A DNA stretch of 64,000 bases from Dictyostelium discoideum (GCA_000004695.1 CM000150.2:2048001-2112000); one strand, 5' to 3'. Positions 15,442 to 16,683 are shown, counted from the first letter of the stretch. The notes: generated from the letters alone by a model not told the origin. Made by a program: numbers and translations.

Positions 15442-16547
15442 ATATAAATAAACTATTGTAGTATACAATTAGTATGTTATTTTTATTTATTTATTTTAGG
15501 TTTTTTAGTTTTTGTGAATTTAAAATAGTATGTTATTTTAGATTAGGTAATTAATAATTAATTGGTGGTGTAATTGTTGGAATTGGTTCATTAGTGTTTA
15601 TGCTCCATTCTTTTTTAAATTTTTTGATGGTTTCGGACCATTGGGTTTCTTTTTGAGTTTTTGTGAGGTTGTTTTTAATTGAGTATTGGTTAAAGTTTGA
15701 TAAAGTTCTTGAATATTCCAATCTTATTAGCTTGTGCCATTTTGATTTTAATATATCATAATCTAGTGTTGTGTTGTTTATTTGGTTGTTCCAATTATCA
15801 ATTGATTGAGTTATATTGATGTCAAATAATGATTTGCATAACCATATCCATATTTGGTGAATAACTAATGAGATTATGTTCCAATATGCATGTGTTCTGA
15901 CTAGATCAAGATTTGTGTTTATATAATTCCAGTTGGACCTGTATTTTTTATATTGTGCGTTTTCTGCAAAATGAAAATTAATATTGATAGTTGGATCTGG
16001 TTTAAATGCTTTGTTGTTTGTTTGTGGTTTATAGATGAGTGTGTATAATTTTGTTGTTTGGTTTTTTGTTAGTGACCAGTTTTTGTTTCCATTGCAATTT
16101 TTATATATAAAATATTTTAATTTGTCGTGGTTTATGAAGTTGATTGTGTGCTGACAATTGAAAAACAAATGACCATAGGGATCATTTTTCATTTCATTGT
16201 TGCAAATGGGGCAAACTTTGTTGTGTAGATGATTAATCGGAAGACATCTAGCATGGAATCTTTGCATTGTATCACGGCCTTTTGGATCTTTTAATTTTTG
16301 AATATTGACAAAAAGTTGGTCGTATGTGTATTTCCATAATAGTTGTATTGATTGTTGGTGCGAAGTAAGAAGTAGATCTGAATATTTCTTGCCAATATAG
16401 TCTTTTGATTTGCATTGGTGATTGTTTAGTATTGTCGAGTAGATTTCTTTGAGTGTTGGTGGTAGTGGAATATTATTTGTGTTTAATGTTTGAGAGGGTT
16501 GGTTTTTTGTTAATATTGGTTGTAGGATTTGAACTTTATCTTTTAGC
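15442..16547 (-). mobile_element. 5'-truncated TRE3-like non-LTR retrotransposon fragment (3' part of ORF2 plus 3' UTR and oligo-A), copy 1
   Basis: About 95% identical to 23612..24714. The open frame runs from the truncation point (stop at about 16553) to 15551 and includes a CCHC-like C-terminal motif (CPICNNEM...HLFFNC). A roughly 110-bp 3' UTR ends in A21 on the minus strand (plus 15421-15441). The 5' junction lies 63 bp downstream of the 3' end of tRNA-Val(AAC), on the same strand as the tRNA. Confidence 0.65.
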
Positions 16548-16609
16548 TTTTTATGTTATCACATCCTGGAATCGATCATGCGATCCTTATTTCTCAAACC
16601 TAAAAATGA

Positions 16610-16683
16610 ATATTCAGAGCGGGAATCGAACCCACGACCTAATCCGTGTTAAGGATTCGTGATAACCGACTACACCATCCGAA
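16610..16683 (-). tRNA. tRNA-Val (anticodon AAC)
   Basis: Reverse complement gives GTTCGGATGGTGTAGTCGGTTATCACG-AATCC-TTAACAC-GGATT-AGGTC-GTGGG-TTCGATT-CCCGC-TCTGAAT-A. The 7-nt anticodon loop TTAACAC reads AAC. T-loop is GGTTCGATTCC. A T5 pol III terminator follows on the transcribed strand (plus 16601-16605). The sequence is identical to the copy at 51470..51543. Confidence 0.8.

Follow-up and report, generated by a model that had tools for sequence, protein, structure and literature searches.

The retroelement fragments found downstream of two valine tRNA genes in a stretch of 64,000 nucleotides of Dictyostelium discoideum DNA (GCA_000004695.1, CM000150.2:2048001-2112000; hereafter the window) are very probably dead TRE3-B insertions, left by target-primed reverse transcription at the known preferred site of this element downstream of tRNA genes. 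As such, the finding represents already known biology, fully explained by the published work on Dictyostelium tRNA-gene-targeted retroelements, and the locus constitutes a textbook case of the way in which TRE3 elements find safe insertion sites downstream of tRNA genes when a genome is densely packed with genes. The present analysis adds exact junction positions, places the copies in a subfamily and corrects the TRE inventory of the window. The call made by a first-pass annotation from the sequence alone, namely that a TRE3-like element had undergone position-specific integration downstream of a tRNA gene, proved accurate and is sharpened to TRE3-B on the basis of the identity of the copies to DDB_G0291686. 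Absent from that annotation were a third TRE3-B piece (fragment E1), a probable TRE5-type remnant upstream of tRNA-Val(AAC) and a relic at 19597-19940. The features of the window are listed in Table 1.

Table 1. tRNA genes, TRE copies and associated sequence features in the 64-kb window
Feature	Coordinates	Strand	Description	Basis
3' copy of the target-site duplication of copy 1, TAAAAAGCT	15408-15416	-		Sequence reading
Oligo(A) tail of copy 1	15419-15440	-	22 A; distal to the tRNA	Sequence reading
TRE3-B copy 1	15441-16546	-	1106 bp, 5'-truncated; same strand as tRNA-Val(AAC)	
5' copy of the target-site duplication of copy 1, TAAAAAGCT	16545-16553	-		Sequence reading
Candidate external B box (ex-B), TGATCGATTCC	16568-16578	-	2 mismatches to GGTTCGANTCC	Motif scan
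tRNA-Val(AAC)	16611-16684	-	Target of copy 1	ARAGORN; Rfam tRNA model, 57.9 bits
Probable TRE5-type remnant	16731-17210	+	Starts 46 bp upstream of tRNA-Val(AAC), opposite orientation	
Relic of a different TRE3 lineage	19597-19940	-	~330 bp 3' part, A18 tail	
Fragment E1, third TRE3-B piece	22547-23585	-	Authentic 5' end, 5' UTR, most of ORF1	
TRE3-B copy 2	23606-25225	-	~1620 bp, 5'-truncated; begins 39 nt downstream of tRNA-Val(TAC)	
Inverted-duplication insertion inside copy 2	24855-24878	-	24 bp	Alignment to L004; translation
tRNA-Val(TAC)	25265-25338	-	Target of copy 2, earlier of fragment E1	ARAGORN; Rfam, 53 bits
tRNA-Asp(GTC)	51321-51393	-		ARAGORN; Rfam
tRNA-Val(AAC), second gene	51469-51543	-		ARAGORN; Rfam

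tRNA genes of the window

ARAGORN predicts four tRNA genes in the window, each of them on the minus strand, and their Rfam scores are 53-61 bits, the gathering score being 29. The 53 bits of tRNA-Val(TAC) were obtained in an Rfam search of its region alone, the pass over the whole window at the gathering threshold having missed this gene. The two tRNA-Val(AAC) genes, one of them the further gene placed near 51470 in the first-pass annotation, are identical over 74 nt, and no TRE-like sequence was detected around 51.3-51.5 kb, in agreement with the portrayal of this gene and the adjacent tRNA-Asp as an element-free pair. The tRNA-Val(AAC) sequence agrees with the published Val(AAC) primer CAGAGCGGGAATCGAACCCACGAC (PMC3159450), and the internal B box of the gene at 16611-16684, located by a B-box scan at tRNA positions 53-63, reads GGTTCGATTCC. 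The GC content of the window is ~22%, and all close protein matches of the element derive from D. discoideum. At ~25385-25425 (+), upstream of and close to tRNA-Val(TAC) but on the other strand, the sequence GGTCGTAAGTTCGATTCTAGGTACTGACCA, with the B-box-like AGTTCGATTCT, is similar to the 3' half of a tRNA and is called by neither ARAGORN nor Rfam.

Structure of the insertion downstream of tRNA-Val(AAC)

On the tRNA strand, the order 3' of tRNA-Val(AAC) is a T-run, 64 nt of unique flank, the A/C-rich element (16546-15441) and a run of A22. This matches the earlier description of a 1.1-kb fragment that lies on the same strand as the tRNA, is 5'-truncated and ends in oligo-A distal to the tRNA. 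The downstream placement of the fragment likewise stands, with the distance between its 5' end and the tRNA 3' end, previously given as 63 bp, amended to 64 nt, or to 66 nt when the 2 nt of CT microhomology are counted as part of the target. Copy 1 comprises the last 331 codons of ORF2, in a frame that is open throughout and includes a CX2CX10HX4C zinc knuckle, and the 3' UTR. It is 99.0% identical to a near-full-length copy in L004, and its translation shares 96.8% amino-acid identity with P0145 (DDB_G0291686).

The target-site duplication flanking copy 1 spans 9 bp when exact and 12 bp when one mismatch is allowed. Its 5' copy overlaps the first two nucleotides of the element (CT), which constitute the junction microhomology. 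For random pairs from the window, the probability that two 24-nt flanks share a 9-mer by chance is P ~0.015. With one copy of the duplication, the empty target site would read ...AACATAAAAAGCTTTGAATC... Between the tRNA gene and the element, a candidate ex-B, in the sense of the external B box concept (PMC5911963), is situated 33-43 nt downstream of tRNA-Val(AAC) and 22 nt upstream of the insertion point.

Both the insertion at this locus and that at tRNA-Val(TAC) are present in GCA_054883475.1 (L001, L005), which is 99.87% identical to the window over 21 kb, and no empty site was found at either tRNA-Val locus in this assembly, the sole other one compared. GCA_054883475.1 probably belongs to the same laboratory strain lineage and would hence be uninformative on polymorphism. 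The comparison loci were retrieved by way of proteins of this assembly.

Two insertions downstream of tRNA-Val(TAC)

A second, differently truncated copy behind tRNA-Val(TAC) had been recognised in the first-pass annotation and is 98.3% identical to copy 1 over 1109 bp (15438-16546 versus 23606-24713, BLAST); the 50 bp by which it had been separated from the tRNA gene is revised to a measured 39 nt. Copy 2 reaches farther 5' than copy 1, to about 25225, and its 3' end at 23606 carries a tail of AAA at most, which does not amount to a real oligo-A. It shows 96.7% identity to the L004 copy and 95.1% amino-acid identity to P0145 (DDB_G0291686). The repeats that could represent its target-site duplication, TTAATAT (7 bp, exact) or an imperfect 14-bp repeat, are not significant in AT-rich DNA (P ~0.09). 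The sole in-frame stop of copy 2 arises from the inverted duplication at 24855-24878, a 24-bp insertion that produces a perfect 22-bp hairpin (DNA fold -21.6 kcal/mol, z = -7.9) and looks like the footprint of a template switch during replication or repair.

Fragment E1 begins 20 bp behind copy 2 and breaks off at 22547. It is 96.1% identical to L004 5863-6888 and 95-97% identical to L002 8059-9004, and these counterparts share the same element start position and lie downstream of other tRNA genes. The N-terminus of the E1 ORF1 (MADDHSTELQ...) equals that of the gene model P0129. A gene coding for a protein with a YqaJ-like viral recombinase/exonuclease domain (PF09588, L001 gene table) is located at 21079-22423 (+) in convergent orientation, with its 3' end ~125 bp from the E1 break point.

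Since E1 starts where the full-length 5' ends in L002 and L004 do, the tRNA-Val(TAC) site has been hit twice. The older insertion is E1, with a true 5' end, and the younger, truncated copy 2 inserted between E1 and the tRNA gene. The loss of the 3' ~4.2 kb of E1 most likely reflects a later deletion, which is assumed because target-primed reverse transcription yields no 3' truncation. Tandem TRE insertions at tRNA genes have been documented (Spaller et al. 2016, PMC5006619). An event less ordinary than a simple tandem with deletion, for instance template switching or recombination involving different TRE3-B copies, or the loss of host DNA beside the YqaJ-domain gene by deletion, appears unlikely to have produced the arrangement; were this the case, it would illustrate TRE-mediated rearrangement of a haploid, gene-dense genome.

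Assignment to the TRE3-B subfamily

The long frame of copies 1 and 2 encodes one shared protein end with the CX2CX10HX4C zinc knuckle. A protein search with the copy ORF returned only D. discoideum proteins, at 88-98% identity, and the protein database matches of the element are all annotated as 'hypothetical protein', none of them naming a family. In P0004, P0007 and P0151, an RVT_1 domain is located upstream of the same C-terminus as in the window copies. P0129, a 1389-aa gene model from another D. discoideum assembly, contains ORF1 (MADDHSTELQ), Exo_endo_phos (422-530), RVT_1 (726-846) and a zinc knuckle near 1170, and the L004 copy displays ORF1, Exo_endo_phos, RVT_1, the CX2CX10HX4C knuckle and an A19 tail, in that order. 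The order of the ORFs in P0129 and the presence of RVT_1 in the relatives therefore identify the family as a two-ORF non-LTR element. At the family level, the full TRE3 architecture is found, with two ORFs, an ORF2 running from endonuclease through reverse transcriptase to zinc knuckle, and a 3' oligo(A); in the window, copies 1 and 2 retain just the zinc-knuckle end of ORF2, and E1 just ORF1.

The subfamily is indicated by P0145 (DDB_G0291686), which falls in the 90%-identity cluster of P0007 and is listed as 'TRE3-B ORF2' in a table of dictyBase gene products (PMC12405889 Table 2, 2025). Because the copies share 95-97% protein identity with DDB_G0291686, they are assigned at the level of sequence identity to TRE3-B, a name taken from the dictyBase product label as relayed in that table. 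The similarity is thus to a TRE3-B ORF2, and neither similarity to an LTR element nor a lack of similarity to TRE3 was found. Another member of the cluster, GenBank AAC27746.1 (1998 entry), is named 'similar to HC domain of Tdd-3 and DRE', which describes a lineage related to TRE3-A and TRE5-A and distinct from both. The nearest relatives of the window ORF2 include an element of D. purpureum (55% identity), a species reported to have TRE3-like elements only.

The length of the element is in accord with this assignment. The near-full-length L004 copy measures 4742 bp, is bounded by a 12-bp target-site duplication and has a 549-bp internal deletion of reverse transcriptase sequence that is present in L002, P0004 and P0151. 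The reconstructed full length of 4742 + 549 = ~5291 bp (~5.29 kb) agrees with the TRE3-B consensus of 5279 bp; the consensus lengths of TRE3-A and TRE3-C are 5229 and 4734 bp, respectively (Spaller et al. 2016, PMC5006619), and of TRE3-D only a partial element of 1559 bp is known, full-length copies being absent (PMC5006619).

An origin of the fragments from another TRE3 subfamily (TRE3-A/Tdd-3, TRE3-C or TRE3-D) is very unlikely. The protein database gives no direct family name, the consensus lengths of TRE3-A and TRE3-B are only 50 bp apart, and the uncorrected 4742 bp of the L004 copy is near the 4734 bp of TRE3-C. However, the identity of 95-97% is to a protein annotated as 'TRE3-B ORF2', and the ~5.29 kb obtained once the 549-bp deletion is corrected misfits TRE3-C. 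A TRE3-D origin is likewise at odds with the full 5' end and ORF1 of the window family, given the partial nature of that element. With regard to TRE3-A, AAC27746.1 of the window lineage is merely 'similar to' Tdd-3, and a distinct paralogous lineage exists (P0009, P0017 and P0159), which probably represents TRE3-A. TRE3-A shares with the window element the family, the order of endonuclease, reverse transcriptase and zinc knuckle and the target preference, but the protein identity of the paralogous lineage to the window element is only 38-55%.

Position relative to tRNA genes and independence of the insertions

All TRE3-B insertions examined (n = 6) are located downstream of a tRNA gene, on the tRNA strand and with the 3' end distal to the tRNA. 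In the window, copy 1 lies 64 nt downstream of Val(AAC) and copy 2 39 nt downstream of Val(TAC), while E1, as reconstructed for the time before the arrival of copy 2, would have been about 45-52 nt downstream of Val(TAC). The others are the L002 copy, about 41 nt downstream of Thr(AGT), the L004 copy, 52 nt downstream of Phe(GAA) and with the 12-bp duplication TCTAATTGGTAA, and a 206-bp 3' stub in L004, 50 nt downstream of Asp(GTC) and with an 8-10-bp duplication. TRE3 integration is defined by a position 40-150 bp downstream of a tRNA gene in the same orientation (PMC5911963), and for TRE3-B, with 43 copies, distances of 34-188 bp downstream of tRNA genes have been reported over 39 copies (Spaller et al. 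2016, PMC5006619). A comparison of the junction distances with published TRE3 spacing, as proposed in the first-pass annotation, places the six insertions (39-64 nt) inside the TRE3-B range of 34-188 bp. TREs are carried by ~61% of D. discoideum tRNA genes (Spaller et al. 2016, PMC5006619). The zone 30-150 bp downstream of the four tRNA genes makes up 0.4% of the position-and-strand space of the window, and two independent hits have P ~1e-5; chance co-location with tRNA genes is therefore not plausible.

B-box-like motifs occur 13-22 nt upstream of two of the insertion points, at 16568-16578 in the window and at 5824-5834 in L004 (GGTTCGACTCT). These fit, in a purely correlative manner, the proposed reading of the B box/ex-B by TRE3 (PMC5911963); in the literature, experimental support for a role of TFIIIC and the B box in targeting exists for TRE5-A only.

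Further TRE3 pieces were observed in the sequences used for comparison. A mini TRE3-B occurs at L002 12195-12290, directly after the A-tail of a TRE3-B copy; it joins ~25 nt from the 5' end of the element to its final ~17 nt, followed by a second A-tail. Distant TRE3-like fragments are found at L002 6518-6973 (+), 148 bp downstream of a tRNA-Thr gene, and at L003 15674-15909 (-), 145 bp downstream of a tRNA-Ile gene, both in the same orientation as the tRNA, and are consistent with other TRE3 subfamilies.

The high identity of copies 1 and 2 (98.3%), their location beside valine tRNA genes and their spacing of ~8.6 kb on the same strand are also features that a segmental duplication of one ancestral unit of tRNA gene and element might leave. 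Such an origin is exceedingly improbable, however. The two tRNAs are only 76% identical and have different anticodons (AAC versus TAC), and the similarity between the loci is bounded exactly by the element borders, with no shared flank beyond them. The copies are truncated at different points (L004 positions 9482 versus 8994) and have different flanks, duplications and tails, and their identities of 99.0% versus 96.7% to the third copy imply different ages. With tRNAs, flanks, truncation points and duplications all differing, the insertions examined are independent, excluding a segmental-duplication origin.

Proposed mechanism of integration and comparison with other retroelements

The anatomy of the insertions, comprising position, orientation, A-tail, duplication, truncation and microhomology, is directly observed, and the combination of the A22 tail, the target-site duplication, the variable 5' truncation and the junction microhomology is the signature of the target-primed reverse transcription that L1-type elements carry out. 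The identity of the targeting factor and the enzymatic steps are inferred from the established scheme for L1-type elements and TREs, on which the mechanism is modelled. By analogy, the element RNA-protein complex would be guided to the transcription complex of RNA polymerase III, probably to TFIIIC on the internal or external B box, and reverse transcription would be primed by a nick and start from the poly(A) end of the element RNA. An early stop of reverse transcription would give rise to 5'-truncated copies of 1.1 and 1.6 kb, and a staggered second-strand cut to the 9-12-bp target-site duplication.

In terms of protein identity (95-97%), length (~5.29 kb), downstream position, same orientation, oligo(A) and 5' truncation, the window element resembles TRE3-B with no difference of substance, the window copies being defective: two are 5'-truncated, one is 3'-truncated and copy 2 is without a real A-tail. 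TRE5-A (DRE) is likewise of the L1 type, has the same ORF2 domain order and targets RNA polymerase III genes, but TRE5 elements insert ~48 bp upstream of tRNA genes in the opposite orientation and have untranslated regions composed of A-, B- and C-modules (PMC5911963, PMC3159450). The probability is negligible that the fragments derive from Skipper-2 (formerly DGLT-P), a Ty3/gypsy LTR element with integrase and chromodomain in which a preference for sites downstream of dictyostelid tRNA genes has evolved convergently and whose D. discoideum copies occupy a similar neighbourhood, 8-23 bp downstream: the distances in the window (39-64 nt) are outside that range, the window element shows an oligo(A) end and a target-site duplication, a repeat search across 14.5-26.5 kb revealed no flanking long direct repeats, and the Pfam domains of the family members include an apurinic/apyrimidinic-type endonuclease and RVT_1, with no RNase H, integrase or chromodomain. 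In yeast, Ty3 and Ty1 likewise find a safe harbour at RNA polymerase III transcription complexes, but are LTR elements which employ an integrase and insert upstream. Human L1 also integrates by target-primed reverse transcription and leaves 5'-truncated copies with target-site duplications and poly(A) tails, but tRNA-gene targeting is absent from it.

Other TRE-like sequences in the window

Aside from the TRE3-B copies, the relic at 19597-19940 shows 57% protein identity to the P0009/P0017 C-terminus versus 38% to TRE3-B, and no tRNA gene or tRNA remnant was found upstream of it or adjoining it. A 33-aa stretch at 42943-43041 (-) is 76% identical to the region following the reverse transcriptase in P0017 and adjoins long T and A runs; it is either a tiny TRE3-like remnant or, possibly, a chance match.

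The sequence at 16731-17210 (+) has no ORF and is A/C-rich and G-poor on this strand, as are TRE sense strands. Sequences matching its final ~130 bp at 76-84% occur in L004 upstream of both tRNA-Phe and tRNA-Asp, as well as once in L002, where no tRNA gene is nearby; the tRNA-Phe copy, which was the one read, ends in oligo(A). The B- and C-module structure of TRE5 has been described (PMC3159450), and the literature search yielded no paper printing the conserved 13-mer of the suspected TRE5 C-module. Judged from its sequence, 16731-17210 is probably a 5'-truncated TRE5 with a B- and C-module-like 3' UTR, in which case tRNA-Val(AAC) would have TREs on both sides.
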